A stretch of DNA of 64,000 nt. Source: Candidatus Woesearchaeota archaeon. GTDB taxonomy: Archaea; Nanobdellota; Nanobdellia; Woesearchaeales; WJIZ01. Where the stretch lies: NCBI GenBank assembly GCA_018221205.1, contig JAAOYF010000017.1, positions 863 to 64,862 on the forward strand, in the 5' to 3' direction. A program made the translations under genes and the position numbers. Shown here one piece after another: positions 38,461-58,870 of the stretch. The notes beneath the pieces were generated by a model. It did not search any database and was not told the DNA's origin. It was given only the letters and a program-made list of their open reading frames with translations. Numbering within the stretch: the stretch's first letter is position 1; each line of letters opens with the position of its first letter.

Positions 38461-39918
38461 ATGAAATCTATGTATGTGAAGAAGGACATACAGCAGGCGA
38501 TGGTGGAGAACGCGAGGAATAGGGAGATCGCGATCCGCTATGGTAATCATTTCGGCAAAAGGCCAGATATTATAACCTATCCTGATGAGGTCCTTGATCT
38601 CATCAAACAAGGCGCGACAAGCTTCCATGCATCTGAAGAGCTATGGGAAAATCCGAAGCTGATTGTTTCGGATATGAGACCGGCTGATGTTGCAAAGCTG
38701 CGCAAAGGATGGGATCTTATTCTAGACATCGACTCCCCTGTCTGGAAAATATCAAAGATAACTGCCTGGCTCATCATTCAGGCGTTGAAAGATTTCGGCA
38801 TCTCCTCGATTTCTGTGAAATTCTCTGGCAACAAGGGCTTTCATATCGGCGTACCTTTTGAAGCCTTCCCCGAGACATATAGAGAACAGAAGACAAAGGA
38901 TCTTTTTCCCGATGCTCCGAGAAGGATCGCAACCTTCCTCTTGGATTATATCAACCAGACCTACATCGCTGTCAAAGAGAACCAGATCGTCTTCGGAGAA
39001 GGCCTGAAGAGAAGATTTCGTGTCCCCTATGAAAAGCTGTTGAAAGTGACCGGAAAGAGCATGGAAAAGCTGACATTTCGGCATTGTTCAAAGTGTAGAA
39101 AGAAGATTGATGTAAAGACAGAGAGAAAAGTCGAATTCTATTGTCCAAAGTGCAGCAATTCAATAAAGAGTGAAGATAAGCAATTCGAGAAATGTCCAAA
39201 ATGCAAGATACTGATGGAAAAATTCGAAGGGAAGAAAAGCTTATGCTCATGCGGAAGCAATGAATCCTATATCATGTTCAATCCATCTTCCATAATCGAA
39301 GTAGATACCATCCTTATCTCCTCAAGGCATCTCTTCAGGATGCCCTATTCGATGCATGAAAAATCAGGATTGGTTTCGATTCCTTTTAATCCAGATAAGA
39401 TTCTTGAGTTTGAGAAGAAATATGCCCGTCCAGAGATCATTAAAGTGTCGAAGCATATATTCATCGATAGGGATAAGACAGAAAGAAACGAAGCGTCCAT
39501 GCTGTTGGGAAAAGCATTGGCATTCTCAGATCAGAAAGAGGAAGTGAAGATAAAGAAAGAATATGAAGAAGTGGGTGAAGCAGTTCCCGAAACACTATTC
39601 CCTCCGACAATCAAAAAGATGCTGGAAGGATTGGAAGATGGAAGAAAAAGGGCATTATTCATCCTCATCAATTTTCTCAAATGTGTCGGTTGGAGCCATG
39701 ATCTGATTGAGAAAAGGATAAAAGAATGGAACAAGAAGAATAAAGGGCCCTTAAAAGAGCAAATAATCATAGGTCAATTACGTTATCAGAAGAATAAAGA
39801 AAGGGTTCCTCCTCCGAACTATGATAAAGACTATTACTCTGGAATCGGCATTACACCCGCAGAAGAGGAGATGCGTTTCAAGAATCCAGTACGGTATGCG
39901 CTTGCAAGAAGGGGATAA
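38461..39918 (+). CDS. priS: DNA primase catalytic subunit (archaeo-eukaryotic primase, PriS) with a Zn-ribbon insert and a C-terminal PriCT-like helical domain
   Basis: DLILDIDSP (DxD), FSGNKGFHIGV (SGxRGFH), RHLFRMPYSMHEKSGL, two CxxC pairs. The C-terminal ~110 aa (GRKRALFILINFLKCVGWSHDLIEKRIKEWNKKNKGPL) resembles a primase C-terminal (PriCT) module. Confidence 0.7.
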   Translation: MKSMYVKKDIQQAMVENARNREIAIRYGNHFGKRPDIITYPDEVLDLIKQGATSFHASEELWENPKLIVSDMRPADVAKLRKGWDLILDIDSPVWKISKITAWLIIQALKDFGISSISVKFSGNKGFHIGVPFEAFPETYREQKTKDLFPDAPRRIATFLLDYINQTYIAVKENQIVFGEGLKRRFRVPYEKLLKVTGKSMEKLTFRHCSKCRKKIDVKTERKVEFYCPKCSNSIKSEDKQFEKCPKCKILMEKFEGKKSLCSCGSNESYIMFNPSSIIEVDTILISSRHLFRMPYSMHEKSGLVSIPFNPDKILEFEKKYARPEIIKVSKHIFIDRDKTERNEASMLLGKALAFSDQKEEVKIKKEYEEVGEAVPETLFPPTIKKMLEGLEDGRKRALFILINFLKCVGWSHDLIEKRIKEWNKKNKGPLKEQIIIGQLRYQKNKERVPPPNYDKDYYSGIGITPAEEEMRFKNPVRYALARRG

Positions 39919-43259: not shown

Positions 43260-44339
43260 ATGATTTCCGTCATAGGAGCAGGACCAGCTGGCTGCTATTA
43301 TGCCTCAAAAGAAAAGGGAGATGTCCACATCTTTGAAGAGCACGCTTCAGTAGGCAACCCTATAGCTTGCACTGGGATTCTGACAGATTCGGTGTTGCAA
43401 TTTACTGATATTCCCAAAGATCTCATCATCAGCAAGATAAATAAGTTCAAGATGGTCGCCCCGAATGGAAAATCCCTCTATGTCGACCTGAATAAGACTA
43501 ATATGGTACTGCATCGTGCCAAATTCGACCAGTTTGTCTTGCAGAAAGCCCTTGATAACGGAGCAAAACTTCATCTGAATGAAAAATTTCTTGGTTACAG
43601 ACAAAATGGCACTGCCTACAAACTGAAAACATCAAAAAAGACGTATGATTCTGAAATGATTATCGGTGCAGACGGCCCTCATAGTGCTGTCGCAAAAGCA
43701 GCAGGCATCTATGGAAAGAGAAAGTTCGTCAAAGGCTACCAGGCAAGGTGTAAGGTCAAAGATTTAGAAGAAGGTGTGACTGAAGTGCATCTCAATCTGG
43801 GAGAATTCTCTTGGGTCGTACCAGAAGACGATAAGATAGCACGAATAGGTGTTATCGGTGTCGATGATGAGAAGCTGAAAGCAGATTATAAGAAGCTCAT
43901 AGGGAATAGTGAAGTGCTTGAGGACCAATCTGGCATAATTCCTCTCTATAACCCGCGCCAGAAGATAAAAAAAGGAAACATATTTCTGCTCGGAGATGCT
44001 GCAACCCATGTAAAAGCCTCGACGTATGGTGGGATAATCTATGGGATGATAGCTGGTGATTACTTGGCCAAGAATAAAGGGACATTCGTAAGCAATATCA
44101 ACAAGAAATTATCAAAAGATTTATGGATAAGCTTGAAGATGAGGAATATGATGAATGCCATGAACGAAAAACAGGCTAATGAATTGATAGATATCTTCGA
44201 AAAAAAGAGGAATAATAAGATTCTTTCAGAGTATGACAGGAATTTCCCGAGCAAATTCATCGTTCAGCTATTGATGAAAGAAGCAAAACTTTGGAAATTA
44301 GGTTTCAAGATATTCGCAAACAGGGCTTTAGGAAAATGA
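43260..44339 (+). CDS. Geranylgeranyl reductase family FAD-dependent oxidoreductase
   Basis: MISVIGAGPAGCYYA (GxGxxG FAD site)...IGADGPHSAVAK...LLGDAA. Confidence 0.7.
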   Translation: MISVIGAGPAGCYYASKEKGDVHIFEEHASVGNPIACTGILTDSVLQFTDIPKDLIISKINKFKMVAPNGKSLYVDLNKTNMVLHRAKFDQFVLQKALDNGAKLHLNEKFLGYRQNGTAYKLKTSKKTYDSEMIIGADGPHSAVAKAAGIYGKRKFVKGYQARCKVKDLEEGVTEVHLNLGEFSWVVPEDDKIARIGVIGVDDEKLKADYKKLIGNSEVLEDQSGIIPLYNPRQKIKKGNIFLLGDAATHVKASTYGGIIYGMIAGDYLAKNKGTFVSNINKKLSKDLWISLKMRNMMNAMNEKQANELIDIFEKKRNNKILSEYDRNFPSKFIVQLLMKEAKLWKLGFKIFANRALGK

Positions 44340-45520
44340 CAGTCGAAGTAAGAGTAGGAAAGATCGGCATTGGTGGAGATAATCCTGTCCGCATTCAATC
44401 TATGACCAATACCCCTACCCAAGACGAGAAAGTGACTGCTAAACAGATAATGGAATTAGCAGATGCTGGCTCAGAATTAGTCCGTTTTACGATAATGGAT
44501 GGTCATGGTGCAGAAAAAGTAGTAAAGATCAAGGAGATTCTTGAGAAAGAGAAATATGACGTGCCTTTGATTGGAGATTTTCATTTCAACGGCCATTTAT
44601 TGTTAGAAAGATTCCCTGATATGGCTCAGATTCTTGATAAATACCGGATCAATCCCGGAAATGTTGGCCATGGTGAGAAACATGATCCGAATTTCCGCAT
44701 CATGATCGAAAAAGCAATCGATAATAAGAAACCTGTCCGAATCGGGGTGAATTTCGGCTCTATCGACAAACAAGTGTATATGAAATTGATGGATGAGAAC
44801 AAAGAAAAAAGCTCTGAAGAACTTGCTATCGATGCGATGGTCGTATCAGCCATGCAATCAATAAAGAAAGCGATTGAATATGGACTAGGAAAAGATAAGA
44901 TAATTGTCTCAACAAAAGCAAGTAGTGTTCCATCGATGATCCGAGCGTATGAAGAACTCGCAAAAAGGACAGACCAGCCCCTGCATTTGGGCGTGACAGA
45001 AGCAGGTATGGGTGATAAAGGTATCATTGCCTCAACAGCTGGTCTATCAACACTCTTGCAGCAAGGGATTGGAGACACTATTAGGGTCTCTTTGACACCT
45101 GAGCCTGGCTCTTCTCGGACAAAGGAGGTTGAAGTGGCTCAACAGATCCTACAGCAGAATGGACTGAGACAGTTTATGCCCATAGTGATCAGCTGCCCGG
45201 GGTGCGGTCGGACAACCTCTATCTTATTCCAAGAAATCGCAAAGGAAATAACTGAATATCTTAAAGAAAATGCTCCAAAATGGAAAAAAGCCGGCTACAA
45301 AGGATTTGAAGATATGAAAGTAGCAGTCATGGGTTGCATTGTCAATGGTCCAGGAGAGAGCAAAGAAGCCAATATTGGTTTAAGTCTCCCCGGCGTAGGA
45401 GAAGACCCTGTCTCGCCGGTCTACATCGACGGCAAACCAGTAGAAAAGCTGAAAGGAGACAAAAGAATCGATGACTTCAAGAAGTTGATTGATGATTATG
45501 TGAAAAGTCATTACGGTTAA
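44336..45520 (+). CDS. ispG: 4-hydroxy-3-methylbut-2-enyl diphosphate synthase (IspG/GcpE)
   Basis: PVRIQSMTNT...INPGNVG...RIGVNFGS...GVTEAGMG...SCPGCGRT...GCIVNGPGE matches all conserved IspG blocks including the 3-Cys Fe-S site. Start at the internal Met (ATGA overlap). Confidence 0.85.
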   Translation: MTVEVRVGKIGIGGDNPVRIQSMTNTPTQDEKVTAKQIMELADAGSELVRFTIMDGHGAEKVVKIKEILEKEKYDVPLIGDFHFNGHLLLERFPDMAQILDKYRINPGNVGHGEKHDPNFRIMIEKAIDNKKPVRIGVNFGSIDKQVYMKLMDENKEKSSEELAIDAMVVSAMQSIKKAIEYGLGKDKIIVSTKASSVPSMIRAYEELAKRTDQPLHLGVTEAGMGDKGIIASTAGLSTLLQQGIGDTIRVSLTPEPGSSRTKEVEVAQQILQQNGLRQFMPIVISCPGCGRTTSILFQEIAKEITEYLKENAPKWKKAGYKGFEDMKVAVMGCIVNGPGESKEANIGLSLPGVGEDPVSPVYIDGKPVEKLKGDKRIDDFKKLIDDYVKSHYG

Positions 45521-45566: not shown

Positions 45567-46544
45567 ATGCAAGCAAGTAAATATATTTGGGAAGTTCTAC
45601 CAGATATTTCAAGAACCTTTGCCTATACTATCCCCAAATTGCCTCCAGGACTTGATTTTGATACTGCACTGACCTACGCGATGTATCGTATTATAGATAC
45701 CATTGAAGATTCTCCGCTAGCACTTGCTAAGAAGACAGAATTAATGGATTTATTTTTCAGTCTTTTTGAGAGTGAGAAAAATTTAACCAGATTTCAAGAA
45801 GAAGTAAAATCAATTCCAAAAAACCAGTATAGTGGTCTGCTTGCAAACGCTTTTAAGATTGTTGAAGCGTTAAAGTCCCGACCGATAGATATCCAAAAAA
45901 CAATTCTCGGGGGTGGGAAAAAGATGGCTGGGGGGTTTCTCAGAGAGGAAGTTCAGCAAATTAACACCTTAGAGGATCAGAACATCTATTGCTATTATGC
46001 AGCAGGTCTGGTGGGAGAAGTTATGAATGAGTTGACCATGCATCACCACCTTATCACAAAGGAGAAAAGTGTAGAACTAAAAGAAAAAGCAAAAGGGATA
46101 GGTCTAGCTTTTCAAAAAGTGAACATCCTTAAAGACATTAAGGTTGATATGGACGAAGACAGGTTCTATTGGCCAAAAGATATCCTAGAAATGAATAATG
46201 TGACTTACTTGACCATCGGAAAAGATGGACATATGGAAGATTCGCTGTCGGTGATTGGTGATTTAACTAAAGATGTAAAACACTATTTTGATCAAGGCTT
46301 AGGATTCATAAACGGGCTCCCGCATAAGCCAGCAGGCCTGCGAATTTTTTGGGCAATCAATCTTATGATGGCAATAGCGACCGTTCGCGTTATTAGGGAT
46401 CCTGCATTATTTGATGATACTATCAAGATTACACGATTAGAAGTAATGGCAATTGATGCAGCAGTGACAAAATGTGTTGAAAATAAAGAAAGTCTAAATC
46501 AGTTAGCACATGCCGTTGCGAAATCAGATATATCCGTATCCTGA
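45567..46544 (+). CDS. Squalene/phytoene synthase family (head-to-head prenyl synthase, SQS/HpnC-HpnD-like)
   Basis: RIIDTIEDS (first Asp-rich motif of SQS), YCYYAAGLVGEVM, GLAFQKVNILKDIKVDMDEDRFYWP (second motif). Confidence 0.7.
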   Translation: MQASKYIWEVLPDISRTFAYTIPKLPPGLDFDTALTYAMYRIIDTIEDSPLALAKKTELMDLFFSLFESEKNLTRFQEEVKSIPKNQYSGLLANAFKIVEALKSRPIDIQKTILGGGKKMAGGFLREEVQQINTLEDQNIYCYYAAGLVGEVMNELTMHHHLITKEKSVELKEKAKGIGLAFQKVNILKDIKVDMDEDRFYWPKDILEMNNVTYLTIGKDGHMEDSLSVIGDLTKDVKHYFDQGLGFINGLPHKPAGLRIFWAINLMMAIATVRVIRDPALFDDTIKITRLEVMAIDAAVTKCVENKESLNQLAHAVAKSDISVS

Positions 46545-46559
46545 ATTGAATCAATATAA

Positions 46560-47480
46560 TCATTCCAAACCGGGGGGCATGATAAAGGTGACTTTCTCAG
46601 TGACGTGATCTAGGGTTTGTATTGTACAAGAAGTGTTTTTCTTTCTGATAGCTGTGATGACTCCTTCAACAAGATAATCAGGAACACTCGCACCAGAAGT
46701 TATCCCCAAGGTTTCGATATTTTCCAGCCATTCTTCTTCAATTCCCTTCTCATCCGGGATAAGATATGATTCCGTGCCAGAATATTTGGCAGTTTCCATT
46801 AATCTGACTGAATTCGAGCTTGTAGGGCTGCCGACAACAAGGATAAGTTCTGCCTGCTGTGCCATTTCCTTGACCGCACCTTGCCTGTTCGTTGTCGCAT
46901 AGCAGATATCCTCTTTCGGCGGTGCCTCGGCTTGGGGATATCTCGCTAAGATCTCCCCCATAATCTCCCTCATATCATCAATTGATAATGTTGTCTGTGT
47001 CAAAATGACGATTTTCTCATTATTCAGAGCAAGCTGCTTGACATCTTCAACATTCTCGACGAGATGCATCGGCGAAATGGCCGTAACACCGACAGCTTCT
47101 TGATGTCCTTTATGGCCGATATAGATGATGTCATACCCGTTTCTATGGAATCTCCGTGCCTCAACATGCACTTTCGTTACTAAAGGACATACTGCATCTA
47201 TTGGGAGGATGCCCATTTCAGCCGCTTTTTCCTTCAAAGCAGGTGGACTGCCATGTGCACTGAAGATGACTTTGCTTCCTTTAGGCACCTCATCCAAAGA
47301 TTCGACAAATATCACTCCTTTCTTCTCCAATTCCTTGACAACATGGGCATTATGAACGATTGCGTGCCTTACATAGATGGGTTTGCCGAATTTCTCTAGG
47401 GCTTTCTCTACAATATCGATTGCTCTGCTCACTCCGGCACAATATCCTCGTGGGCTTGCAAGAATGATTTTCTTGACCAT
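46560..47480 (-). CDS. ispH: 4-hydroxy-3-methylbut-2-enyl diphosphate reductase (IspH/LytB)
   Basis: PRGYCAGVSRAI...VRHAIVHN...SAHG...AVCPLVTKVH...ICYATTNRQ...VVGS.TSSNS shows all three Cys ligands and the conserved blocks. Confidence 0.85.
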   Translation of the reverse strand: MVKKIILASPRGYCAGVSRAIDIVEKALEKFGKPIYVRHAIVHNAHVVKELEKKGVIFVESLDEVPKGSKVIFSAHGSPPALKEKAAEMGILPIDAVCPLVTKVHVEARRFHRNGYDIIYIGHKGHQEAVGVTAISPMHLVENVEDVKQLALNNEKIVILTQTTLSIDDMREIMGEILARYPQAEAPPKEDICYATTNRQGAVKEMAQQAELILVVGSPTSSNSVRLMETAKYSGTESYLIPDEKGIEEEWLENIETLGITSGASVPDYLVEGVITAIRKKNTSCTIQTLDHVTEKVTFIMPPGLE

Positions 47481-47553: not shown

Positions 47554-48822
47554 ATGAAAGTACAGTTCATAACACAAGGATGTAGTGCAAATCAGGCAGA
47601 TTCTGAGATAATGGCAGGACTGTTGAAGAGGAAAGGCTATGAGATAACAGATGATGCCAAAACAGTTGTCTTCAATACCTGCACGGTAAAAGGCCCGACT
47701 GAATCATTCTATAGAAGAAAACTGAAAAAACTGGAAGAGGAAGGAAAGAAAATCATCATCGCAGGCTGCATTCCACAAGCAAAAGGCCCTCTAAAAGATC
47801 ATTCTACTGTAGGCAACTTCCAATTAGAGAAGATTGAAGAGGCAATCAAAGAGACAGCTAAAGGAAATGTTGTTTCTTTCCTAGAAAGAAACCATAAATC
47901 ACGGTTGAATCTGCCAAAAATAAGATCAAGAGAGACGATTGAGATCGTTCCCATATCTGATGGCTGTTTGAGTTCATGTTCATTCTGCAAGACAAAGCAT
48001 GCAAGGGGAAATTTATACTCATATCCTGAAAAAGACATCGTAAGACATATCAGCAACGCAGTTCGAGAAGGTGCAAAAGAAATCTGGCTCACTTCTCAAG
48101 ACAGTTCTGCATATGGCCTGGACAATAAAACAAATTTAGCTGAATTATTGAAGAAAATAGTAGAGATTCCAAGAGATTTTCGATTACGGGTAGGTATGGC
48201 CAACCCCGATTACTTCAAATCTTTCTTAGATGAATTTATTGAAGTCATGAAAAATGAAAAGATCTTCAAGTTCTGCCATATTCCAGTGCAATCCGGCAAC
48301 AATTCAGTATTGAAAGATATGAAAAGGAATTATACCGTCGAGGAATATAAGCGAATTGTAAGAAAGATAAAGAAAGAGATTCCTGAAATAAACATCGCAA
48401 CAGACATCATCTGTGGGTTTCCGACAGAAACAAAAGAGCAATTCAACGATACGTTAAGATTAGTCAAAGAAACCAGGCCAGATATCATCAATATCTCCCG
48501 TTTTTGGCCTCGTCCTGGAACGCCGGCAGCAAGAATGGAGCAGATCGGAGGCAGAGAGATCAAAAAAAGGACAAGGTTGCTGACAGAACTCTTTCGCAAA
48601 GTCGCAGAAGAGAATAATAAGAGCTGGCTTGGCTGGAAAGGCAAGATCTGGATCAACGAAAAAAGAAAAAATAGCTCTATGCTAGGAAGAAACTTCGCCT
48701 ACAAGCAAGTGGTTGTTCCAGGAACATTCAAGATAGGCCAAGAACTGGATGTTGAAGTGATTGATTCAACATCCTTCTATCTGAGAGCAAAAATATTAGA
48801 GAAATCTATTTCTTCCGTCTAA
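47554..48822 (+). CDS. MiaB-like tRNA methylthiotransferase (radical SAM MTTase, archaeal/eukaryal e-MtaB type)
   Basis: MKVQFITQGCSANQADSE...NTCTV (UPF0004 domain), ISDGCLSSCSFCKTKH (CxxxCxxC), C-terminal TRAM domain. Confidence 0.75.
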   Translation: MKVQFITQGCSANQADSEIMAGLLKRKGYEITDDAKTVVFNTCTVKGPTESFYRRKLKKLEEEGKKIIIAGCIPQAKGPLKDHSTVGNFQLEKIEEAIKETAKGNVVSFLERNHKSRLNLPKIRSRETIEIVPISDGCLSSCSFCKTKHARGNLYSYPEKDIVRHISNAVREGAKEIWLTSQDSSAYGLDNKTNLAELLKKIVEIPRDFRLRVGMANPDYFKSFLDEFIEVMKNEKIFKFCHIPVQSGNNSVLKDMKRNYTVEEYKRIVRKIKKEIPEINIATDIICGFPTETKEQFNDTLRLVKETRPDIINISRFWPRPGTPAARMEQIGGREIKKRTRLLTELFRKVAEENNKSWLGWKGKIWINEKRKNSSMLGRNFAYKQVVVPGTFKIGQELDVEVIDSTSFYLRAKILEKSISSV

Positions 48823-49273
48823 AAATAACAAACTCCCATTCATCATGGTCTTCTTTCTTCTCGATTTCCCATTCAGTTTCATCCCATTGTGGAAAGAAAG
48901 TATCTCCTTCATACTCTTTTTTGATGAAAGAAAGGTACATCTTATCGAGTTTGTCAATAGTCTGCCTGTAGATCTCGGCTCCGCCAATGACAAATATTGT
49001 TTTTTCATACGATTTTGATTTCTCTAATGCTTCATCAACACTTTTAGCTGTTTCACAGCCCTCAATCTTGTCCATAGAACGAGAAATGACAATATTTACT
49101 CTGTTCGGCATCGGCCTATTGATGCTTCTATAGGTCTTGCCGCCCATAATCACAACAGAATCCTTTGTTTGCTTCCTAAAATGATCCAATTCTTCCTTGA
49201 TATCCCACGGCATCCAGTTATCTTTACCGATAACGTGTTTCTTCTTCGTCATTGCTGCAATTGCTATTATCAT
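48806..49273 (-). CDS. folA: Dihydrofolate reductase
   Basis: MIIAIAAMTKKKHVIGKDNWMPWDIKEELDHFRK..TKDSVVIMGGKTY...IFVIGGAEIY. Confidence 0.8.
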   Translation of the reverse strand: MIIAIAAMTKKKHVIGKDNWMPWDIKEELDHFRKQTKDSVVIMGGKTYRSINRPMPNRVNIVISRSMDKIEGCETAKSVDEALEKSKSYEKTIFVIGGAEIYRQTIDKLDKMYLSFIKKEYEGDTFFPQWDETEWEIEKKEDHDEWEFVIFRRKK

Positions 49274-50133
49274 ATGGCTATGGGGAATTTTATATGTGGA
49301 TGACTTTCATAATCCTCCACCGTACTATCAGTGTATTTCCAATCAAAGATTGATGTAAACTCTGTTTTTATCGTCGGCAATTTCTTCGGCTCTCTGCTGA
49401 TCTGCTCTCTTACGCCTTCGACATGATTATCATAGATATGTGTATCTCCCAGAAATCCAACGAGTTTTCCTTCCTCAAATCCAGATTCCTTAGCAAGGAG
49501 ATGCAACAACAGAGCATAACTCGCAATATTGAAAGGTAATCCTAACATAGTATCAACAGAACGCTGGTTCCACAACAAATTCAATTTGTTTCCTATGACA
49601 TTCACCTGGATAGACCAATGGCAAGGTGGCAAGGCCATTTTCTTAAGATCAAGAGGATTCCATGCTGACATGATCATTCTTCTGCTCGTCGGCTCTTCTT
49701 TAAGCAATCTGATGATTTCTTTAAGCTGATCAAATCCCTTTCCAGTATAAGAAGTATGTTGATCTTGATAGTCAGCACCGAAAAAACGCCATTGGAATCC
49801 GTAGACAGGTCCCAGATCCTTTTCTTCCATCATTTTCTTCTGTGCTTCTTCACTATGGCCGTAAGGCACTTTAGTAGGAGAGCACCATTCATCCCAGATA
49901 TGGTTCTTTCTCTCCTGCAGCCATGCTTTGTCAGTCTTGCCCTTGATAAAAAACTCCAGTTCAGAAGCAACTAACCGAAAAGGCACTTTCTTCGTCGTCA
50001 GAAGAGGAAATCCTTCACTCATATCATGCTCGAATTTCACTCCAAAAACTGCTTTATTCCCTACTCCGGTCCTGTCTTTCTTCGCCACCCCTTTCTCTAG
50101 GATGTGTTTGACAATATCTAAGTAACCCCTCAT
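49270..50133 (-). CDS. thyA: Thymidylate synthase (ThyA type)
   Basis: DRTGVG...PLLTTKKV...SAWNPLDL..MALPPCH...DTHIYDNH. ATGA overlap with folA. Confidence 0.9.
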   Translation of the reverse strand: MRGYLDIVKHILEKGVAKKDRTGVGNKAVFGVKFEHDMSEGFPLLTTKKVPFRLVASELEFFIKGKTDKAWLQERKNHIWDEWCSPTKVPYGHSEEAQKKMMEEKDLGPVYGFQWRFFGADYQDQHTSYTGKGFDQLKEIIRLLKEEPTSRRMIMSAWNPLDLKKMALPPCHWSIQVNVIGNKLNLLWNQRSVDTMLGLPFNIASYALLLHLLAKESGFEEGKLVGFLGDTHIYDNHVEGVREQISREPKKLPTIKTEFTSIFDWKYTDSTVEDYESHPHIKFPIAI

Positions 50134-50185: not shown

Positions 50186-50956
50186 ATGGATATCCGTCGA
50201 TTCCAAAAGAAAATCTTCAGTCACTATGAAGAAAAAGGCCGTGATCTGCCCTGGCGACGTACTAAAGACCCCTACAAGATTCTTCTCTCTGAAATAATGC
50301 TCCAGCAGACCCAGGTAGACCGGGTCATCGACTATTATAAAAAATGGACAAAAAAGTGGCCCGCAGTGAAAAAACTGGCAAATGCATCAAGAAAGGATAT
50401 CCTAAAAGCATGGATGGGTCTCGGGTATAACAATCGTGCCATTAATCTGCATAAAACAGCTAAGATCATTTCAGACCATTTTAAGGGAAATATAATTAAT
50501 GCTGTTCAGAACCATGAAATTCTTCCTGGCATAGGTCCCTATACTTCTGCAGCAGTCCAGATCTTCGCTAAAAATGCCGATATCGTAACTATAGATACGA
50601 ATATCAGAAGGGTCCTGATGCATGAATTCAATATTATGGATGATAAAGTTCCAGAAATGGCGAAAAAATGTCTGCCAAAAGGAAAAAGCCGCATTTGGCA
50701 TAATGCCTTGATGGATTACGGCCAGATTCTATCGTCGAGAAAGACAGGAATCAAGCCAAAAACCCAACAAACTAAGTTCGAAGGCTCTGACAGACAAGTA
50801 AGAGCAAGAATTATGAGGTTATTGCTAAAAAAGAGTCACTCTTTTACCGAGTTGAAAGATTCTCTAACAGTTAAAACATCAAGATTAAATAAAATCATTG
50901 AAAAAATGCTCAAAGAAAAAGTGATAAAAGAAAAAAATAAGAGATATTCTATCTAA
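50186..50956 (+). CDS. HhH-GPD superfamily DNA glycosylase (MutY/Nth-like N-terminal domain, no Fe-S cluster loop)
   Basis: GRDLPWRRTKDPYKILLSEIMLQQTQVDRVI matches the MutY N-terminal signature. Only one Cys is present, so no C-x6-C-x2-C-x5-C cluster. Confidence 0.6.
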   Translation: MDIRRFQKKIFSHYEEKGRDLPWRRTKDPYKILLSEIMLQQTQVDRVIDYYKKWTKKWPAVKKLANASRKDILKAWMGLGYNNRAINLHKTAKIISDHFKGNIINAVQNHEILPGIGPYTSAAVQIFAKNADIVTIDTNIRRVLMHEFNIMDDKVPEMAKKCLPKGKSRIWHNALMDYGQILSSRKTGIKPKTQQTKFEGSDRQVRARIMRLLLKKSHSFTELKDSLTVKTSRLNKIIEKMLKEKVIKEKNKRYSI

Positions 50957-51978
50957 ATATCCTCAATACCCTTGCCAGTGATCACAAATCCGGCTTCTCC
51001 GTCTGGCAAGTAAGGACTATCTACAAGTTTAGCAACTCTCGTTCCTTTCTTACCTCTGCGAAGATATATCCTTGTCTGGGAATTGTGCCCGACGATATTT
51101 CCGCCGATAGCTTCTGTTGGATCACCGAAGAACTGGTCTGGCTTGGCCATCACTTGGTTTGTGACATACACACATAAGTTGTGGATGTCTGCAAGCTTTG
51201 ACAAGACATGCATATGCTTATTCAGCTTCTGCTGCCTGCCTGCAAGTGTTCCTCTGCCCACAAACTCAGCCCTGAAATGCGCAGTCAGTGAATCAACAAC
51301 AACAAGCTTGATTTTATGGCCGTCTTTCACGATAAGGTCCTCGATCTTCTCAGCAAGCAACATCTGATGGTCTGAGTTATAGGCTCGAGCGACCATGATG
51401 TTCTTCAGTACTTTATCAGGATCCATTCCTGCACCTTTGGCAATCTCGACGATTCTTTCAGGTCTAAAGGTAGATTCAGTATCTATGTAGACGACTTTGC
51501 CATCAGTTCCGCCTTTATCAGCAGGCAATTGTGCCCGGATAGCTATGATGTGTGCTATTTGAGATTTACCAGAGCCGTATTGGCCATATGTTTCAGTAAT
51601 GCCGTTGGTCTCTATGCCACCACCGAGCAATTTATCGACTTCTTTGCTTCCTGTGGTTATCTTCATCACATTTTTCCGTTTCTCGAGCAGATCCAATCCA
51701 GAAGAGAATCCCATATCGAGCATACTTCTGCCTGCTGCGATAATTTTCTTGGCAGCTACCTCAGTCATGCCTGTAGCATCGGTCAACTCGCCGGGTGTAG
51801 CGACAGCCACCCCCATCAGGTCATTAAAGCCCGCGATTTGCAACTTCTCTATAGTCGCTGCTCCGACTCCTGGAAGATCTTCTAATGTCTTTTCTTGTTT
51901 GATTTCCTTTTCCATCTTGATTTCTATGACTTTTGTTTCTTGTTTCATAGTTCCGTCCTCGTTTTTATGTTTTTTCAT
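50953..51978 (-). CDS. radA: DNA repair and recombination protein RadA
   Basis: N-terminal HhH (LEDLPGVGAATIEKL), Walker A GQYGSGKSQ, Walker B KLVVVDS. Confidence 0.85.
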   Translation of the reverse strand: MKKHKNEDGTMKQETKVIEIKMEKEIKQEKTLEDLPGVGAATIEKLQIAGFNDLMGVAVATPGELTDATGMTEVAAKKIIAAGRSMLDMGFSSGLDLLEKRKNVMKITTGSKEVDKLLGGGIETNGITETYGQYGSGKSQIAHIIAIRAQLPADKGGTDGKVVYIDTESTFRPERIVEIAKGAGMDPDKVLKNIMVARAYNSDHQMLLAEKIEDLIVKDGHKIKLVVVDSLTAHFRAEFVGRGTLAGRQQKLNKHMHVLSKLADIHNLCVYVTNQVMAKPDQFFGDPTEAIGGNIVGHNSQTRIYLRRGKKGTRVAKLVDSPYLPDGEAGFVITGKGIEDI

Positions 51979-52593: not shown

Positions 52594-53046
52594 TTAGAAA
52601 ACCAAGAGAATGATGCCTACAACTATCAGAAAGAAGAATATTTTCTCTAAAATCCCTCCTGTCTTGACAAATCCTTTGGCCTTGAAACCCAGAGGCCAGA
52701 ACGGTCTGATGCCTTTTTTTGTCAAAGCATCCAAAATAAGGTGAGATGCTGTTCCAAATAAGAATCCGAAAGCAACTTCTTGATAAGGCAAAAAAGAAAG
52801 CAGGATATATCCTGCCAAGACAAACCATATTGAATGAAAAAACGTCCGATGCCCGAAGATAAGCTTAAGGAATGAAGAAAGCATGCCAATTTTCTTGCCG
52901 GCTTTTGATTTCGGCTCATCAATATCTACAAAAGCAGTGAAGAGAATCAACGAAGCAAAGAATAAAATGTTGCTTTGAAAAGAAAAATAACGTAAAGAAA
53001 CTATACCGATAAGGATTGAGAACACTAAATGGGTATAAAATAGCAT
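52594..53046 (-). CDS. Membrane-bound metal-dependent hydrolase (YdjM/DUF457 family)
   Basis: Four TM helices and a HLILDALT motif. The start overlaps the rpa stop by 1 nt. Confidence 0.5.
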   Translation of the reverse strand: MLFYTHLVFSILIGIVSLRYFSFQSNILFFASLILFTAFVDIDEPKSKAGKKIGMLSSFLKLIFGHRTFFHSIWFVLAGYILLSFLPYQEVAFGFLFGTASHLILDALTKKGIRPFWPLGFKAKGFVKTGGILEKIFFFLIVVGIILLVF

Positions 53047-54050
53047 TATTGTACAGCTTCGGCTTCTTTCTCTAATCTTTTTAATTCTTCATCTGGATTT
53101 GGATCAGGAAACACTTGTTGGGAGATGAATTCAATCCTATCAAACATCTCGTTTTTAGTCACCCTGCCGACAATCTTGACAATTTTTCCCAATAATCCAT
53201 CTTTGATTGCTTGAAATTCTGCAGTATTCTCTTTTAATTTGAGAATTTCATCATTATTTTTTTGCAGGAGATTATTCATCTGATTCCTGAAGAAAATCGT
53301 CCGTATCGTCGAGGTTCCATCATCCAGGACAGTATTCATCACATACCCATATGCTGTTGCAACGCTTCCATGTGTCGGACATTCAAATCCGTTCTCTTTC
53401 TGCTTTGCTCTCTTCCCGCATTCCGGACACACTTCATAGAACCGAGGCTCAAAAGCCTGGACAATAGTGCCCAATAGCTCGATATTGCTCTCATTTTCCT
53501 TGAGATCAGCGATTTTTCTCCTACCTACAACGGGCTGGGCAACCTCACCGACAGTCTCACCCTCTGGATTCGGGATGATCTCTCCTTTTGTAGCAAGGTG
53601 TATCTCTAGATTATTATTATTATTCCGGGAATACGCACCAACAACCTTGACGATAATGCCCATTTTAAGATCCTTCACAATATCTGTCTGTTCATTCCAT
53701 AATACGACCCTGATAGTGCCTGTTTCATCTCCGATAGTAAATGCTAAGACCTTCCCGGCACTCCCATCTTTCCGATTGAACTCCTTGACATCGAACAATT
53801 GGGTGATTTTGCCGACAGTCTCAACACTCCTCATCCCTTCGAGAATACGTTTGATCTTGACTTTGGTCTGTGATTCATCAAAAAGCTTCACTCCCAATTC
53901 ATTGGCTATGATGTGGGCGGCTCCTTCTTTGGAGATCAGCCCAGAAAGCTGGTCCATCTTGGACTTGATCTTGGCATCGATCTCTCCGTCGCTGATCTTG
54001 GCCTGCTCTTTGATCTTCTCAACTAACATGTCAAAAGGTACTTTAATCAT
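53046..54050 (-). CDS. rpa: Replication protein A (ssDNA-binding, euryarchaeal RPA with OB folds and Zn ribbon)
   Basis: OB-fold blocks plus CPECGKRAKQKENGFECPTHG zinc ribbon. Its TATA box (ctttaaatag, 54082-54091) overlaps the last codons of the upstream gene. Confidence 0.7.
   Translation of the reverse strand: MIKVPFDMLVEKIKEQAKISDGEIDAKIKSKMDQLSGLISKEGAAHIIANELGVKLFDESQTKVKIKRILEGMRSVETVGKITQLFDVKEFNRKDGSAGKVLAFTIGDETGTIRVVLWNEQTDIVKDLKMGIIVKVVGAYSRNNNNNLEIHLATKGEIIPNPEGETVGEVAQPVVGRRKIADLKENESNIELLGTIVQAFEPRFYEVCPECGKRAKQKENGFECPTHGSVATAYGYVMNTVLDDGTSTIRTIFFRNQMNNLLQKNNDEILKLKENTAEFQAIKDGLLGKIVKIVGRVTKNEMFDRIEFISQQVFPDPNPDEELKRLEKEAEAVQ
53609..53623. repeat. (ATT)5 trinucleotide microsatellite inside rpa, encoding an Asn5 linker
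   Basis: attattattattatt, read on the coding strand as AAT x5 = NNNNN in RPA. Confidence 0.6.
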
Positions 54051-54082: not shown

Positions 54083-55576
54083 TTATGGGATAGTTATCGT
54101 AGCTATTGCATAGAGTATGGGGAATTCATTGCGATATTCGGGCCTGACTCGTAAGATCGTTATTCCTTCTTTCTGGTCTTTTTCCACAGGATTCCCGGCT
54201 TTATCTGCCACAAGAACAGCGACACAGTAAGTTTTCCCTGGCATGAACAGCCCAAGAACATCATTCTTCTCTCTTCGTTGCCCGCCTAGGACCCCTTCAC
54301 CATCCATAGTGACAACGTCAGTGCAATCTCCTTCCTTGATATAATAGTAAACATCAAGATTTTCCTCAGCCAGATCCATAGTGATGTCGCTTACAGTTAA
54401 TTGAAGATTTGTTGCTGCCGGAGGAGCGAGCCTATCTTGTGGGGTGAATGTTCTGGTGAGAGGGTCTGCCATATTGCTGTTCTTATCGACTCCGGTGATA
54501 GTGAAGGTATATTCCTTGTCCTCAAGATTAGGGATAAGGTAATGATACAAAGAATCTGAATAAAGGAAAAATGATTTCATCTCTTTTACATAAGGTTGCG
54601 CATCTTTTATTGAAGCAGAAAGCGATGTTGAATCAAATTCGATGTTGAAATGATCAATGTCCTTATCATCGGCCTTCCATGAGAGAATGACTCCTTTGTC
54701 CAGTTTAGAGGCTATCTCTACAACCAATCCACCAAGCTGCGGTGCTGTGTCTCTGAAATAGACCGCAAATTTGACTTTTTGTTGTTTCTCTGAAAGCCCT
54801 TTCCCCTGAGGGATTAGATAATGGTTATTGGTCGAGGCGCAGAACAAGAATGTCCTGTCATCATCATTATCCTTCTTCTCACAATCGATTTCTAATAATA
54901 TGATTTGTCTCTTATTGAAATCATCGACTGCTTTGGTTACGCAGCTGGAAAGCTGCGCACTCCTCTCGCAATCTACAACATCAGAAAAGATCTGAGAGAA
55001 TTCTTGCCATAAAGTATCATAGATGGAAGTATCATAGGCAAGAGTGAGGTCAAAACTAGGTTTCAAAGTAAGATTCCCTATCTTATCGTTCTTGAATTCT
55101 ATAGGCTGCACAAGATTCTGCAATGCAATGCCTATGATCTGCAGTCCTCTATTCTCTCGGCTGTAGAATTCATAGTCGATATCCAAGCCTGCTTTATCCA
55201 GGTTGCTTTTGAGAAGCGGAAGAAGCGCTTGATGGAGGTTCTTGAACAGGATATTCTGTTCTGGAAAGCAGATGCTGTCTTTTGTCTGCCACAAGACATA
55301 TTCTACGCTGCCGCAGGGAAACGTTTGATAATATCCTCCTCTCTCCTCTAAAAGAGAGAGTGCCTGATAGGAAGAGAATTTCGCAGCGTGGTCAATATAG
55401 AACAAGGATTGCTGTTGCTTGCTTGAGATGTCCAAGATCTCAAACTGCAGTTCCCCTATCTTGGCAGAGAAATCCCCTTTCATGTTGTCGAGAGTGATGA
55501 ACAGGCTGGGAAAGATCATGCCGATCATGAAAAGTGACAGCAGCAGTATGAACACCATCCCTTTTTTTGATCTCAT
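54083..55576 (-). CDS. Secreted or cell-surface protein with a class-III (prepilin-like) signal peptide; function unknown
   Basis: N-terminus MRSKKG|MVFILLLSLFMIGMIF, the rest hydrophilic. Last gene of the long minus-strand operon. Confidence 0.5.
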   Translation of the reverse strand: MRSKKGMVFILLLSLFMIGMIFPSLFITLDNMKGDFSAKIGELQFEILDISSKQQQSLFYIDHAAKFSSYQALSLLEERGGYYQTFPCGSVEYVLWQTKDSICFPEQNILFKNLHQALLPLLKSNLDKAGLDIDYEFYSRENRGLQIIGIALQNLVQPIEFKNDKIGNLTLKPSFDLTLAYDTSIYDTLWQEFSQIFSDVVDCERSAQLSSCVTKAVDDFNKRQIILLEIDCEKKDNDDDRTFLFCASTNNHYLIPQGKGLSEKQQKVKFAVYFRDTAPQLGGLVVEIASKLDKGVILSWKADDKDIDHFNIEFDSTSLSASIKDAQPYVKEMKSFFLYSDSLYHYLIPNLEDKEYTFTITGVDKNSNMADPLTRTFTPQDRLAPPAATNLQLTVSDITMDLAEENLDVYYYIKEGDCTDVVTMDGEGVLGGQRREKNDVLGLFMPGKTYCVAVLVADKAGNPVEKDQKEGITILRVRPEYRNEFPILYAIATITIP

Positions 55577-56019
55577 GTATACCCCAGGATTGCTAGTCGT
55601 ATCGGTAATGGTCCTTCAGGACTCGCGATGTCCATCGATTGTTCAAGAAGCACCTGTTTTTTCTCACAATCTACACTGTACAGCGTCTGATCATCCTGCC
55701 ACAATGCCCAGCATATGGGCTGTGCCTGTCCATATACACTGTTCAATGCATGATTGATTACATTCTTTGCCAGATCCCTTGACGGATTTTCAATAGTGAG
55801 CAGGACTTCATCTGCAACAGTGGTTGATTCGGTCACAGGGGTCTGCAGGATGCTGATGAGGATGCCTTTGTCATCAAGATAGCCTTTCTGGATTGAGATT
55901 TCATACGTGATATCTCCGATAAGGAATGAATAAGCGACAAACCATGCTACCATCCCCAAAAAGAAGAAAAACCAACCTAGCATATCTGTAAATATGCCCA
56001 AAAATCCTTTCTTATTCAT
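55573..56019 (-). CDS. Small pilin-like protein (class-III signal peptide)
   Basis: MNKKG|FLGIFTDMLGWFFFFLGMVAWFV. 4-nt overlap with the downstream gene. Confidence 0.5.
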   Translation of the reverse strand: MNKKGFLGIFTDMLGWFFFFLGMVAWFVAYSFLIGDITYEISIQKGYLDDKGILISILQTPVTESTTVADEVLLTIENPSRDLAKNVINHALNSVYGQAQPICWALWQDDQTLYSVDCEKKQVLLEQSMDIASPEGPLPIRLAILGYT

Positions 56020-56473
56020 ATTCCACCGTCTTTATCTGCATCTTTCCCTCGCTTCCGTTGTGGCTGACGAGATATCTCCAGAAAAGATTATCATGAAATT
56101 TGCTGAATTTTGACAAAGGCTCATCTCTCTCAAACCATTTTTGATTGTAGAAGATCTCCTTCTGCTGCCCATCTCTCTCTAAGATGATCCGTGCGCTGAA
56201 CGTGTCCTCTGCATCGTCAGCCCTAATCAATTCCTCTGGTAACTTTTCCTTGATCACACCAGGATATGTCCGCAACGCGAGTGGTGATTCGTGGCTCAAT
56301 TCTCCATAGATCGCGCGATGAGAGAAGATCACAGCCCGAAGATCATAAAGTTCAATCTTGTTGTTGACATGCGTACTCACGAGCAGCCACAACGTGAAGA
56401 AGATGATGACTAGGAAAAGCATTCTCCAGAATCCATAATTCAGTATCTTGAATCCATCTCCTTTTTTGTTCAT
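56012..56473 (-). CDS. Small pilin-like protein (class-III signal peptide)
   Basis: MNKKG|DGFKILNYGFWRMLFLVIIFFTLWLL. Confidence 0.5.
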   Translation of the reverse strand: MNKKGDGFKILNYGFWRMLFLVIIFFTLWLLVSTHVNNKIELYDLRAVIFSHRAIYGELSHESPLALRTYPGVIKEKLPEELIRADDAEDTFSARIILERDGQQKEIFYNQKWFERDEPLSKFSKFHDNLFWRYLVSHNGSEGKMQIKTVEYE

Positions 56474-57477
56474 ATGAACCCCGAATGTAAGGCAATCTTC
56501 AAAGCCTGGAGCTTTTCTGTAGTGAACTCCTCTTTGATACTTATCTCTATGATAAGCTGTGCCGGATTTCCTATCTTTTCTTCAAGGGTGAATGCTGATG
56601 CAGGTATCGATGCAGAGATTTCTGTGCCGAATCCATCATCGACAAGGCCATTGACAAGGCTGCATGAAAGCCCGATCAGATCAGCATTATCAGCAAAGTA
56701 GTAGCTCTTGACTGAATCAGTGCTTTGTTTGTCAGAGAACAGAAGATAGGTGATTGTCCCTGAGGCAGCATCCCTTTTCTTGATCTCTCCTCGCTCTCCC
56801 AGGAAATTCTTGACATCAAGATAGGGATCATTATCCTCTGTGATGAAGACCAGATCAGTGATAGGCCTGGATTTAGGGCAATTAAGAAAGTTTGGCTGCT
56901 TTTCTTCAAGTGTCGAGCTCACGGTGAGTTGATTAGGCGTCTTATAGAAGTAAAGATTCATGCCTTCTTCTCTCTTCACTTTGTTTTTGCGCAGCACCTC
57001 AAGTATAGGCATATACTTTGAGATGAATCCTTTCTTCGGCGGCTGGATATTTGAAGTGAGCAGCGCTGGTTTGATGGTAACAGAAGGGTTCTGGATGAAA
57101 TGCTCTCGTTCTCTCTCTGTGGTTGGTTCATCTCTTTTCTCAAAGACCTCGATCCGGTCTGTCTTGAGTTCCAGTCCGAACCAATAAGTATCTTGAGGAT
57201 AATGCAAAAATGCATTTCCCGGAACCGAAAGTAAAGTATCTGTCAATAGCGCAGTATCTTTTGCCAATAGTCTCTTCTGATAGAATGATTGCTCTCCTAC
57301 TTCTCCGATATAGCGGAAGATAAGAAGGAGTATAACAAGAAGTATGAAAAGATCGATGAACCAAAAGATGGCCTCTCCCTCTACACCCTTTTTTCCCAGT
57401 AGTTTAGCAGTAAACATTGACTCCTTTCTCACTTTTCCGTAATGTGCATGTATAGGTAACAGCATTCTCTTCATCAA
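56470..57477 (-). CDS. Pilin-like or secreted protein (class-III signal peptide); alternative start Met21 at 57417
   Basis: ...MFTAKLLGKKG|VEGEAIFWFIDLFILLVILLLIF followed by a ~280-aa hydrophilic domain. Confidence 0.5.
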   Translation of the reverse strand: MMKRMLLPIHAHYGKVRKESMFTAKLLGKKGVEGEAIFWFIDLFILLVILLLIFRYIGEVGEQSFYQKRLLAKDTALLTDTLLSVPGNAFLHYPQDTYWFGLELKTDRIEVFEKRDEPTTEREREHFIQNPSVTIKPALLTSNIQPPKKGFISKYMPILEVLRKNKVKREEGMNLYFYKTPNQLTVSSTLEEKQPNFLNCPKSRPITDLVFITEDNDPYLDVKNFLGERGEIKKRDAASGTITYLLFSDKQSTDSVKSYYFADNADLIGLSCSLVNGLVDDGFGTEISASIPASAFTLEEKIGNPAQLIIEISIKEEFTTEKLQALKIALHSGFI

Positions 57478-57868
57478 GCTTCGGCTCTGCCCTGAAATCC
57501 TCGACTAAGGCCTTCTCCAGCTCAATGCATTTCTTCAGTGCCTTGTTCTGGCAGTTTGAATCCTTGATACAGATGCACACGCAGGATTTTGTTGACGTGC
57601 ATCCTAATTGGCTGATCCCTTTGGTGAATCCTTGGATTTCATGGATCTCATCGATGTACATGGGAATTTGCTCCTCGATCTTCACCATGTTATCGATCTC
57701 TATCTGTAATCGTTCAAGGCTGCTCCTCGTTCCAGTCTCAAGATCCTGGACCCAGTAGCCGGTGAGCATGATGAAGATTTTCCATGCGATGAAAGAAAGT
57801 AAGACAAAGAACAATACCTCGATGAACAGCTTGATGCCGAATCCTTTCTTATTGACAGGTCGAAGCAT
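57404..57868 (-). CDS. Pilin-like protein (class-III signal peptide) with a Cys-rich C-terminus
   Basis: MLRPVNKKG|FGIKLFIEVLFFVLLSFIAW. Seven Cys in the C-terminal half. The ORF track's longer start (57907) would overlap the upstream gene by 59 nt. Confidence 0.45.
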   Translation of the reverse strand: MLRPVNKKGFGIKLFIEVLFFVLLSFIAWKIFIMLTGYWVQDLETGTRSSLERLQIEIDNMVKIEEQIPMYIDEIHEIQGFTKGISQLGCTSTKSCVCICIKDSNCQNKALKKCIELEKALVEDFRAEPKLDEENAVTYTCTLRKSEKGVNVYC

Positions 57869-58136
57869 CCTTGGTCCGTAGACTCCATTCCTCTCCTTTG
57901 CATTCATACAAATCTTTCCCTCTGCATTCCGTTTGTCCTGATGTGCATTTTCGTAATCCTAATCCTTCTAAAGCCTCGTTATTGCCGTCTCCTGCCCCCC
58001 GAGTAAGCTCCTTGAACGCATCAGAGATGCCTCCCATCCTTCCGGTGAAGATCGCGATGATGACAAACAATACTACAAGCAGAATAGCCGCGACAATCAC
58101 TGTATTCATCGTTAATTCCATTCCTTTTTTCATCAT
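57849..58136 (-). CDS. Small archaeal type IV pilin-like protein (class-III signal peptide, Cys4 C-terminal domain)
   Basis: MMKKG|MELTMNTVIVAAILLVVLFVIIAIFTGR, then C-x7-C-x7-C-x13-C. Confidence 0.6.
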   Translation of the reverse strand: MMKKGMELTMNTVIVAAILLVVLFVIIAIFTGRMGGISDAFKELTRGAGDGNNEALEGLGLRKCTSGQTECRGKDLYECKGEEWSLRTKDASTCQ

Positions 58137-58870
58137 CTCACCATCATATATGTTATGTCTTGTTCATCTCCCCTCATGAGAGCAACCAAGCTTGATTGTG
58201 ATATCTCCCCAATGACGATGCCTCCTCTCCGTGCGCTCGCCTCATACCATCCTATATTCTCGATCTTATCGATATACACACCATTTTGGCCTGAAGAGAA
58301 ATCAAAAGGCCGTTGACTGATCTTTCCTCTGAAATCATTTGCCCAGAGGATATTCGTGAATTCCAGTTCTCTCTTCCAATCCTCATCGACAAAGATATAG
58401 AACACGAATCTACCTTCCTCTTCTCGTGCAAGAACAAAGCCGTTGATGATGCCGTCATGAGGATCAAATTCATGCCCGATGCTCATCGCAACTAATTCAT
58501 CAGCCAATGCCCTCTTTTCAGACAGGCCCATCCCTCGTGTCTTGTTAAAAAAATCAGCAGGCAGATATTCTGAATCGAATTCCTCTCCTTTGTACATCCC
58601 TTGATAGAAGAATGAAGTCAATCCTTCAGAGGTGAAATAATCCTGCTGTGATTTCAACGTCTTTAAGCTGCCTTCTGTCGCCAGATACGTGTCGACGACA
58701 ACCTCTGCAGGATCTGTCGGGCTTTCATACACCCAATCTGAAGGATTATCAGTGAAGAATACTTTCTCTCGAGTAGGCTTCGGTGTCAATTCAGATATTA
58801 AGAATATCCCGGCAACTACCAAAACCAAAACTAATCCTATAATGATGATTATCTTCTTCATATTAATCAT
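58133..58870 (-). CDS. Secreted or anchored protein (N-terminal hydrophobic anchor), function unknown
   Basis: MINMKKIIIIIGLVLVLVVAGIFLI, then a hydrophilic acidic domain. Confidence 0.45.
   Translation of the reverse strand: MINMKKIIIIIGLVLVLVVAGIFLISELTPKPTREKVFFTDNPSDWVYESPTDPAEVVVDTYLATEGSLKTLKSQQDYFTSEGLTSFFYQGMYKGEEFDSEYLPADFFNKTRGMGLSEKRALADELVAMSIGHEFDPHDGIINGFVLAREEEGRFVFYIFVDEDWKRELEFTNILWANDFRGKISQRPFDFSSGQNGVYIDKIENIGWYEASARRGGIVIGEISQSSLVALMRGDEQDITYMMVR

Follow-up and report, generated by a model that had tools for sequence, protein, structure and literature searches.

A 64-kb stretch of archaeal DNA (64,000 nucleotides, referred to below as the window) carries a gene for a PriS-type primase whose chain continues far beyond the catalytic domain. 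What is this C-terminal extension, and does the protein still hold the [4Fe-4S] cluster, which is regarded in the literature as a highly conserved feature of the primases of archaea and eukaryotes and is termed "highly conserved" in the study of NEQ395, the primase of N. equitans (PMC10250227)? Our analysis makes it highly probable that the gene encodes a single-chain PriS-PriL fusion which serves as the cellular replicative primase of a Woesearchaeota (DPANN) archaeon and has no [4Fe-4S] cluster.

The open reading frame (ORF), as given in the ORF list, begins with ATG, and its length and coordinates agree with those of the first-pass annotation (Table 1). Its product is 100% identical to NCBI GOV09_02370, a "hypothetical protein" from a metagenome-assembled genome (MAG) of a Candidatus Woesearchaeota archaeon; GOV09_02370 is carried on a 67.6-kb contig. 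We found more than 5000 homologues of ~500 aa with the same architecture, nearly all of them from Woesearchaeota, Nanoarchaeota or Nanobdellota MAGs, and the nearest relatives of the window primase also come from MAGs of these groups.

Table 1. Features of the primase gene, in window coordinates.
Feature	Coordinates	Strand	Basis or remark
Complete primase gene	38461..39918	+	ORF list; 485 aa plus stop; predicted monomeric PriS-PriL(CTD) fusion
AEP/PriS catalytic domain, aa 1-345	38461..39495	+	PF01896, Foldseek, AF2 pLDDT >90
Motif I, DLILDID (D89, D91, metal ligands)	38713..38733	+	Invariant in alignment; equivalent to NEQ395 D87/D89
Motif II, SGNKGFH (S122, K125, H128)	38824..38844	+	Invariant; equivalent to NEQ395 S119/K122/H125
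Nested double zinc-ribbon insert, aa 205-266	39073..39258	+	C209, C212, C228, C231, C245, C248, C262, C264
Motif III region, DTILISSRHLFR (D282, H290, R293)	39304..39339	+	Invariant; equivalent to NEQ395 D194/H202/R205
Linker: long alpha-helix, aa 346-367, then flexible loop, aa 368-381	39496..39603	+	AF2; resembles NEQ395 linker
PriL-CTD-like helical domain without Fe-S ligands, aa 382-485	39604..39915	+	
T383 at Fe-S ligand Cys1 position (FPPC to FPPT)	39607..39609	+	Cys in 110/120 homologues
RKRALF (R395-K396-R397, F400)	39643..39660	+	Predicted site for initiating NTP / primer 5' end
Remodelled former Fe-S loop, aa 449-485	39805..39915	+	PPNY454, Cys3 deleted, E470, KNPVRY kept

Domain architecture of the window primase

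The N-terminal part of the protein is a PriS catalytic domain. Pfam PF01896 (PriS, DNA_primase_S) matched residues 88-310 above the Pfam cut-off (E 3.5e-11), and a Foldseek search with the full-length AlphaFold2 (AF2) model, which has a mean pLDDT of 91.6, matched human Pri1, Pyrococcus PriS, Prim-PolC and LigD polymerase domains. The set of catalytic and nucleotide-binding residues is intact (H56, D89, D91, S122, K125, H128, D282, H290 and R293), and these residues align one-to-one with H58, D87, D89, S119, K122, H125, D194, H202 and R205 of NEQ395, the mutation of which inactivates that enzyme (PMC10250227). The first-pass annotation had reported that all AEP catalytic motifs were present; we recovered motifs I to III, each equivalent to essential NEQ395 residues.

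The PriS domain contains an insert of ~85 aa relative to the 393-aa NEQ395, and the insert holds two nested zinc ribbons. The window primase is 92 aa longer than NEQ395 because of this insert and not because of its C-terminal extension. Thus, the earlier statement that the protein is ~140 aa longer than a typical PriS describes the ~140-aa extension correctly but does not account for the excess over NEQ395. The eight zinc-ribbon cysteines are 94-97% conserved among close homologues, the outer and inner pairs have been lost independently in different sequences, and the whole insert is missing in about half of the family representatives. Some homologues are wrongly annotated as ribosomal protein L37AE or RpoP, owing to the zinc ribbon.

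The C-terminal part follows a linker whose loop, at residues 368-381, is the place where the AF2 pLDDT dips to ~63. The segment that the first-pass annotation had quoted from the extension, GRKRALFILINFLKCVGWSHDLIEKRIKEWNKKNKGPLKEQIIIGQL, was located at residues 394-440 of the 485-aa protein. That annotation called the extension a PriCT-like domain, which proved to be the wrong family label. A Pfam search with the full-length protein gave a weak match to PF04104 (DNA_primase_lrg; E 1e-3) together with NCBIfam PriL models, and no PriCT match (PriCT_1 PF08708, PriCT_2 PF08707) even at E <= 10. When the C-terminal domains of homologues were scanned one by one, PF04104 was found in 38 of 38, with a best E of 2.6e-12, while PriCT_1 gave sub-threshold matches in eight (best E 0.022), PriCT_2 in none, and RepB_primase_C was matched by one. 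Furthermore, a profile of the C-terminal domain matched the solved P. abyssi PriL (9f26_B) with an E of 2.5e-7, via FPPC and PPNC...C.PD..C..KNP..Y. Since the full-length Foldseek search returned matches to the catalytic domain only, a domain-only model was needed for the structural comparison; this model (pLDDT 89.7, no cofactor) had PriL-CTD and PriX as its best structural matches. The PF04104 match in every domain scanned and the match to P. abyssi PriL identify the extension as homologous to the C-terminal domain of PriL (PriL-CTD). The earlier resemblance to PriCT is explained by remote homology, as PriCT-1/PriCT-2 and helix-bundle domains are remote homologues of PriL-CTD, with PriCT itself confined to mobile-element primases (Kazlauskas et al. 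2018).

An AEP domain with a PriCT-type module, as on plasmids, phages and integrated elements, would make the protein a mobile-element primase-polymerase instead of a cellular replicative primase. The mobile-element primases pRN1 ORF904, RepB' and PolpTN2 likewise join, in a single chain, an AEP domain to a helical accessory domain on its C-terminal side, and this accessory domain too has been proposed to act in dinucleotide formation. We consider such an identity very unlikely for the window protein. Besides the PF04104 assignment and the PriL-CTD and PriX structural matches, sequence motifs are common to the window family and P. abyssi PriL. In addition, the neighbouring genes are housekeeping genes (Tyw1, Dph2, ThyA, RadA and RPA), a chromosomal context, and no integrase, helicase or other mobile-element gene was found adjacent to the primase. 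A pattern-based scan of IMG/VR viral contigs, which could miss distant relatives, detected none, and the literature reports vertical inheritance of the fused gene across DPANN cluster 2 (PMC7414124).

The PriL-CTD assignment places the protein among primases that are already known. Iyer et al. 2005 (as cited in PMC3914693) reported a PriS-PriL fusion in N. equitans, and later work added Nanohaloarchaea and Parvarchaeota (PMC3914693). All DPANN cluster 2 lineages, together with Undinarchaeota, have the fusion as a shared derived trait (PMC7414124; Raymann 2014; Dombrowski 2020), and DPANN cluster 1 retains separate priS and priL genes (PMC7414124). NEQ395 (Schneider et al. 2023, PMC10250227) is a monomeric enzyme and the only AEP in its genome; its PriS domain is followed by a helix of ~30 residues, a protease-sensitive hinge and a PriL domain, which is needed in cis for initiation, and the length of the linker controls primer length. 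The window primase has the same order of PriS, long linker helix, flexible hinge and PriL-CTD, its catalytic and initiation residues correspond, it comes from the same superphylum and its context is chromosomal, but it differs from NEQ395 in having no equivalents of C289, C364, C376 and C384. Compared with the canonical PriS-PriL enzymes (P. abyssi 9F26, human 4RR2/5EXR, yeast PriL-CTD 3LGB), it has the AEP catalytic fold in common and shares with archaeal PriL the PriL-CTD fold and the motifs FPPx, PPNx and KNPxxY, whereas it has no PriL N-terminal domain, forms one polypeptide and apparently carries no Fe-S cluster. The single-chain architecture is already known and is expected for a Woesearchaeon. 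The earlier suggestion of a single-chain or otherwise unusual primase was therefore right about the single chain but did not point to anything new. The fusion itself is textbook for DPANN, and its relevance here lies in the correct annotation of a "hypothetical protein".

Candidates for stand-alone PriL-like genes were also considered. A search with the C-terminal domain gave only proteins of <200 aa, and for the two that lie on long contigs a frameshift or an intein was found to have split what is one primase gene, so these short proteins do not argue for a split architecture. The short PriL-like fragments often adjoin PCNA. In family members of 880-1020 aa we found inteins that carry LAGLIDADG endonucleases, and inteins are common in essential replication proteins.

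Fe-S ligand positions and initiation residues

The [4Fe-4S] cluster of NEQ395 is ligated by C289, C364, C376 and C384 (PMC10250227). In an alignment of the 120 nearest homologues of the window primase (90% clusters), the four corresponding columns, in the motifs FPPC, PPNC, C.PD and ..C..KNP, hold Cys in 88-93% of the sequences; altogether the four cysteines are kept by about 85-95% of homologues, as they are in NEQ395. In the window protein we found none of them. Alignments place T383 at Cys1, Y454 at Cys2, a deletion at Cys3 and E470 at Cys4. The sole Cys in the C-terminal domain is C408, which is conserved in 27% of relatives, and the sole His is H413. Judged from its sequence, the window primase appears to have no [4Fe-4S] cluster, its former cluster loop having been rebuilt around aromatic and acidic residues, and because all four Fe-S cysteines are absent it is best placed as a variant of the NEQ395-type family and not as a typical member. 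Several Fe-S enzymes are encoded in the window (Tyw1, Dph2, IspG, IspH and a MiaB-like radical-SAM protein), which argues that the organism still makes Fe-S clusters and that the loss in the primase is not a side effect of losing Fe-S biogenesis.

Ligation of Fe-S clusters by residues other than Cys (His, Asp, Glu or Ser) exists in other proteins. With E470 at the Cys4 position and the acidic EEE of residues 467-469 nearby, the C-terminal domain might be thought to bind an Fe-S cluster or another metal centre through non-canonical ligands. This is highly improbable given that the domain offers one Cys, C408, and one His, that ligand 3 is deleted, and that nearly every cysteine-less relative has Tyr or Phe at ligand 2. 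The combination of Tyr/Phe and deletion is what would be expected if hydrophobic side chains filled the cluster cavity, and not if a new set of ligands had formed.

The residues for primer initiation are retained. Counted from ligand position 1, R395, R397 and F400 are found at +12, +14 and +17, the same spacing as R301, R303 and F306 of NEQ395, and mutation of these three abolishes priming (PMC10250227). The RKR of the window protein is also equivalent to the 72-RKR-74 motif of PriX, which contacts the NTP triphosphate (PMC5700102). In all 21 of the cysteine-less proteins compared, the initiation residues (R/K, K, R and F400) were kept, and so were all catalytic residues plus N453, N475 and P476; compared with one another, these proteins are only 40-60% identical. 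The rebuilt loop itself, PPN[YF]..YY..G[IV]..P..EE..[FY]KNPV, is conserved among proteins with an overall identity of only 50-60%. It was modelled by AF2 with a pLDDT of 85-95, a confidence that is no proof of cofactor-free folding because AlphaFold models no cofactors. From these conserved positions, the cysteine-less proteins look functional. Engineered enzymes point the same way: each NEQ395 Cys-to-Ala mutant loses the cluster and retains or gains primase activity (PMC10250227), and an S. solfataricus primase engineered to lack the cluster domain is fully active (PMC5700102).

By analogy with NEQ395, PriX and human PriL-CTD, we propose that the C-terminal domain would swing onto the PriS active site. 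There, R395-K396-R397 would hold the triphosphate of the initiating NTP, and F400 would stack on the template/primer junction. With this NTP held by the C-terminal domain, PriS could make the first dinucleotide, after which the C-terminal domain may remain on the primer 5' end, the length of the tether determining the length of the primer. This mechanism is one that we infer for the window protein, as are its enzymatic activity, its cofactor-free folding and its status as the sole replicative primase.

The RKR motif and a cluster-free fold are common to PriX and the window domain. PriX is a separate third subunit, crenarchaeal, that stands beside a canonical cluster-bearing PriL, whereas the window domain is fused to PriS, is PF04104 by sequence and has no other PriL beside it in the 64-kb window. 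Membership in PriX was rejected because of this fusion, the stand-alone copies elsewhere being frameshift or intein fragments. By analogy, the window domain would work like PriX without being a member of it.

Distribution and origin of the cysteine-less state

The cysteine-less pattern (S/T/A, Y/F, gap and E at the four positions) recurs in independent assemblies. We detected it in 8 of 120 full-length homologues, in about 25 of 50 matches to the C-terminal domain and in 4 of 80 species-representative genomes. When 1.84 billion 50%-identity representatives were searched exhaustively, 694 family members were obtained at E <= 1e-3. Among the 122 of these representatives that could be evaluated, 19 (16%) were cysteine-less by direct count, defined as at most one Cys in the C-terminal domain, and nearly all of them had PPN[YF] instead of PPNC. 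Ligand loss thus affects 5-16% of family members, depending on the sample. It was found both in sequences with the zinc-ribbon insert (10/46) and in those without (10/67). One cysteine-less copy lies on JACJVV010000001.1, a near-complete contig of 712 kb.

The window sequence derives from a metagenome-assembled genome, and frameshifted copies of the primase gene occur in other assemblies, so missing cysteines produced by sequencing or assembly had to be considered. We regard this as exceedingly improbable. An artefact would require errors in four separate codons as well as a false in-frame deletion, and the same substitution pattern appears in many independent assemblies from different studies. 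This recurrence in independent data sets indicates that the loss is not an assembly error.

The trees and the loop gave different pictures of how the cysteine-less proteins are related. In neighbour-joining (NJ) trees built on the PriS domain, the cysteine-less sequences formed a clade in 0 of 200 bootstraps. With residues 1-375, the window protein fell inside a group of nine cluster-bearing sequences (135/200 bootstraps), nested in a 16-member clade (172/200) that also holds other cysteine-less sequences of the window type. Parsimony on the NJ tree required 5-6 state changes among 193 sequences. The tree of 50%-identity representatives was without usable signal, because its parsimony count of 17 changes was no better than that for shuffled tips (mean 18.6). 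Region-by-region identity grouped the window protein with cluster-bearing sequences everywhere but in the former Fe-S loop, where identity was 51-69% to cysteine-less and 33-39% to cluster-bearing proteins. The conflict between loop and tree could reflect a single loss obscured by an artefact of the tree, convergent remodelling, or recombination at the 3' end.

Replacement of Cys by Ser, Tyr or Phe takes a single-nucleotide change at codon position 2, so mutation can readily produce these replacements more than once; the shared deletion and the EE..R motif are harder to account for in this way. The replacement patterns differ among cysteine-less proteins, for example SYPM, SYET and SYIN. Because the cysteine-less state is present in subfamilies both with and without the zinc-ribbon insert, and with different replacement patterns, we conclude from sequence comparison that it probably arose by at least two losses, and likely by more than two.

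Cellular role and the need for the cluster

Whether the window protein is the organism's replicative primase depends in part on what other primases are encoded. The first-pass annotation had noted no PriL nearby, and this holds across the 64-kb window. When 59 ORFs with a length of 148 aa or more, which span the whole window, were scanned against Pfam, the primase gene was the only PriS or PriL match. Likewise, an unfiltered hmmsearch with the full-length and C-terminal family profiles found no second PriS- or PriL-like sequence among the 703 stop-to-stop ORFs of at least 40 aa in the window. Archaeal DnaG, which is generally linked to the exosome, is probably encoded elsewhere in the genome.

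The inspected sequence is 64 kb of the genome, and no other member of its immediate clade has a former Fe-S loop as divergent as that of the window protein. Both points would suit a relaxed, secondary or decaying paralogue, with priming carried out by another primase encoded outside the window. We think this unlikely. The ORF is intact. All catalytic and initiation residues survive in the window protein as well as in each of the 21 cysteine-less relatives compared, and the rebuilt loop shows conservation of its own; these two observations indicate long-term purifying selection. Moreover, no assembly with two primase loci was found among the 80 best genome matches, and in the literature the fused gene is the sole form reported for genomes of DPANN cluster 2 (PMC7414124).

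The absence of all four Fe-S ligands in the window primase appears to be new. We found no description of a naturally cluster-free cellular primase in the literature, our coverage of which lies mostly outside subscription journals; since that coverage is incomplete, the novelty is provisional. Our tentative reading is that, here and in 5-16% of related lineages, the sole replicative primase may have naturally discarded its cluster, probably on repeated occasions and with Tyr or Phe almost always taking the place of Cys2.

The role of the PriL [4Fe-4S] cluster is disputed, being seen either as structural or as a DNA-mediated redox switch, and evidence that it is dispensable has so far come from engineered enzymes in vitro, namely a PriX-PriL chimera and the NEQ395 Cys-to-Ala mutants. 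The window primase, if it is the only primase of its genome, would be the natural counterpart to these enzymes. In that case neither the cluster nor the proposed redox switching would be needed in vivo for chromosomal priming. A cluster-free cellular lineage would extend dispensability to living cells, would show how the fold compensates, and would offer small, oxygen-insensitive, monomeric model primases that could be studied aerobically. The window primase thus represents a natural test of whether a primase needs its Fe-S cluster.

Conflicting signals among the primase regions

We found that different parts of the window primase point to different relatives. Its former Fe-S loop, the stretch that corresponds to the cluster-binding segment of the PriL-CTD-like domain, shares 51-69% identity with other primases lacking the four cluster-ligand cysteines, whereas all regions outside this loop are closest to cluster-bearing primases. 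On sequence comparison, there is thus a phylogenetic conflict between domains. Recombination could have brought together segments of separate ancestry, convergence could have made the loop resemble those of the other cysteine-less proteins, and an artefact of the tree could produce the same picture; each is a possible explanation.

We also examined residue S92, directly after motif I. Close homologues read DIDC here in 83% of cases, and the window primase carries serine. Position 92 is not cysteine in any of the window-type cysteine-less relatives. However, other cysteine-less groups have cysteine there, so any tie between residue 92 and the Fe-S state would be weak.

The zinc-ribbon insert and unusual family members

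The primase has an insert between AEP motifs II and III, a nested double zinc ribbon whose cysteines form four CxxC/CxC pairs. One or the other set of pairs is missing in different homologues, and this covariation suggests an outer site formed by C209, C212, C262 and C264 and an inner site formed by C228, C231, C245 and C248. About half of the family representatives lack the insert, as do proteins of the size of NEQ395, the cluster-bearing primase of Nanoarchaeum equitans. Because of the insert, homologues have been mis-annotated as ribosomal protein L37AE or RpoP.

Other family members are also unusual. In five primases of 880-1020 aa (P0210, P0240, P0275, P0285 and P0301), the PriS domain is interrupted by an intein that contains a LAGLIDADG homing endonuclease, and in P0190 (769 aa) an alpha/beta-hydrolase is fused at the C-terminal end. 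In two loci from other assemblies, L081 (1920-4558) and L082 (2982-4471), the primase gene consists of overlapping ORFs in different frames, reflecting either a real frameshift or an assembly error. These split ORFs were called as separate small proteins and consequently look like stand-alone PriL-like genes.

Genes around the primase

Coordinates of features in and around the window primase
Feature	Window position	Strand	Remarks
Glycan/cell-surface polysaccharide cluster	311-36501		~30 genes
Residue S92	38734-38736
Zinc-ribbon insert	39073-39258		aa 205-266
Former Fe-S loop	39805-39915	+	aa 449-485
IspG (GcpE) and IspH (LytB) either side of squalene/phytoene-synthase-like gene	44291-45520, 45567-46544, 46560-47480	+, +, -
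ThyA (thymidylate synthase) with DHFR	48806-50133	-
RadA recombinase	50953-51978	-
RPA-like OB-fold protein	53046-54050	-
Eight consecutive ORFs	54083-62820	-	497, 148, 153, 335, 167, 245, 994, 281 aa

The very large cluster for biosynthesis of glycan or cell-surface polysaccharide fills more than half of the window. Among its products are glycosyltransferases of families GT2, GT4 and GT9, numerous epimerases and dehydratases acting on NDP-sugars, a C-methyltransferase and an asparagine synthase, as well as two membrane proteins with DUF6541 and a flippase. The eight-ORF run, without a Pfam match at E <= 1e-4, could belong to an integrated element or encode a surface structure. An ARAGORN search of the whole 64 kb (1-64000) returned no tRNA genes.

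IspG and IspH catalyse the last steps of isoprenoid synthesis by the bacterial-type MEP pathway. Since Archaea normally use the mevalonate route, these genes may have been acquired horizontally.

Downstream of the primase, at a distance of 9-14 kb, the ThyA/DHFR, RadA and RPA-like genes make up a loosely spaced group with roles in DNA metabolism. PCNA adjoins the primase in L081 and L082 but is not adjacent to it in the window.
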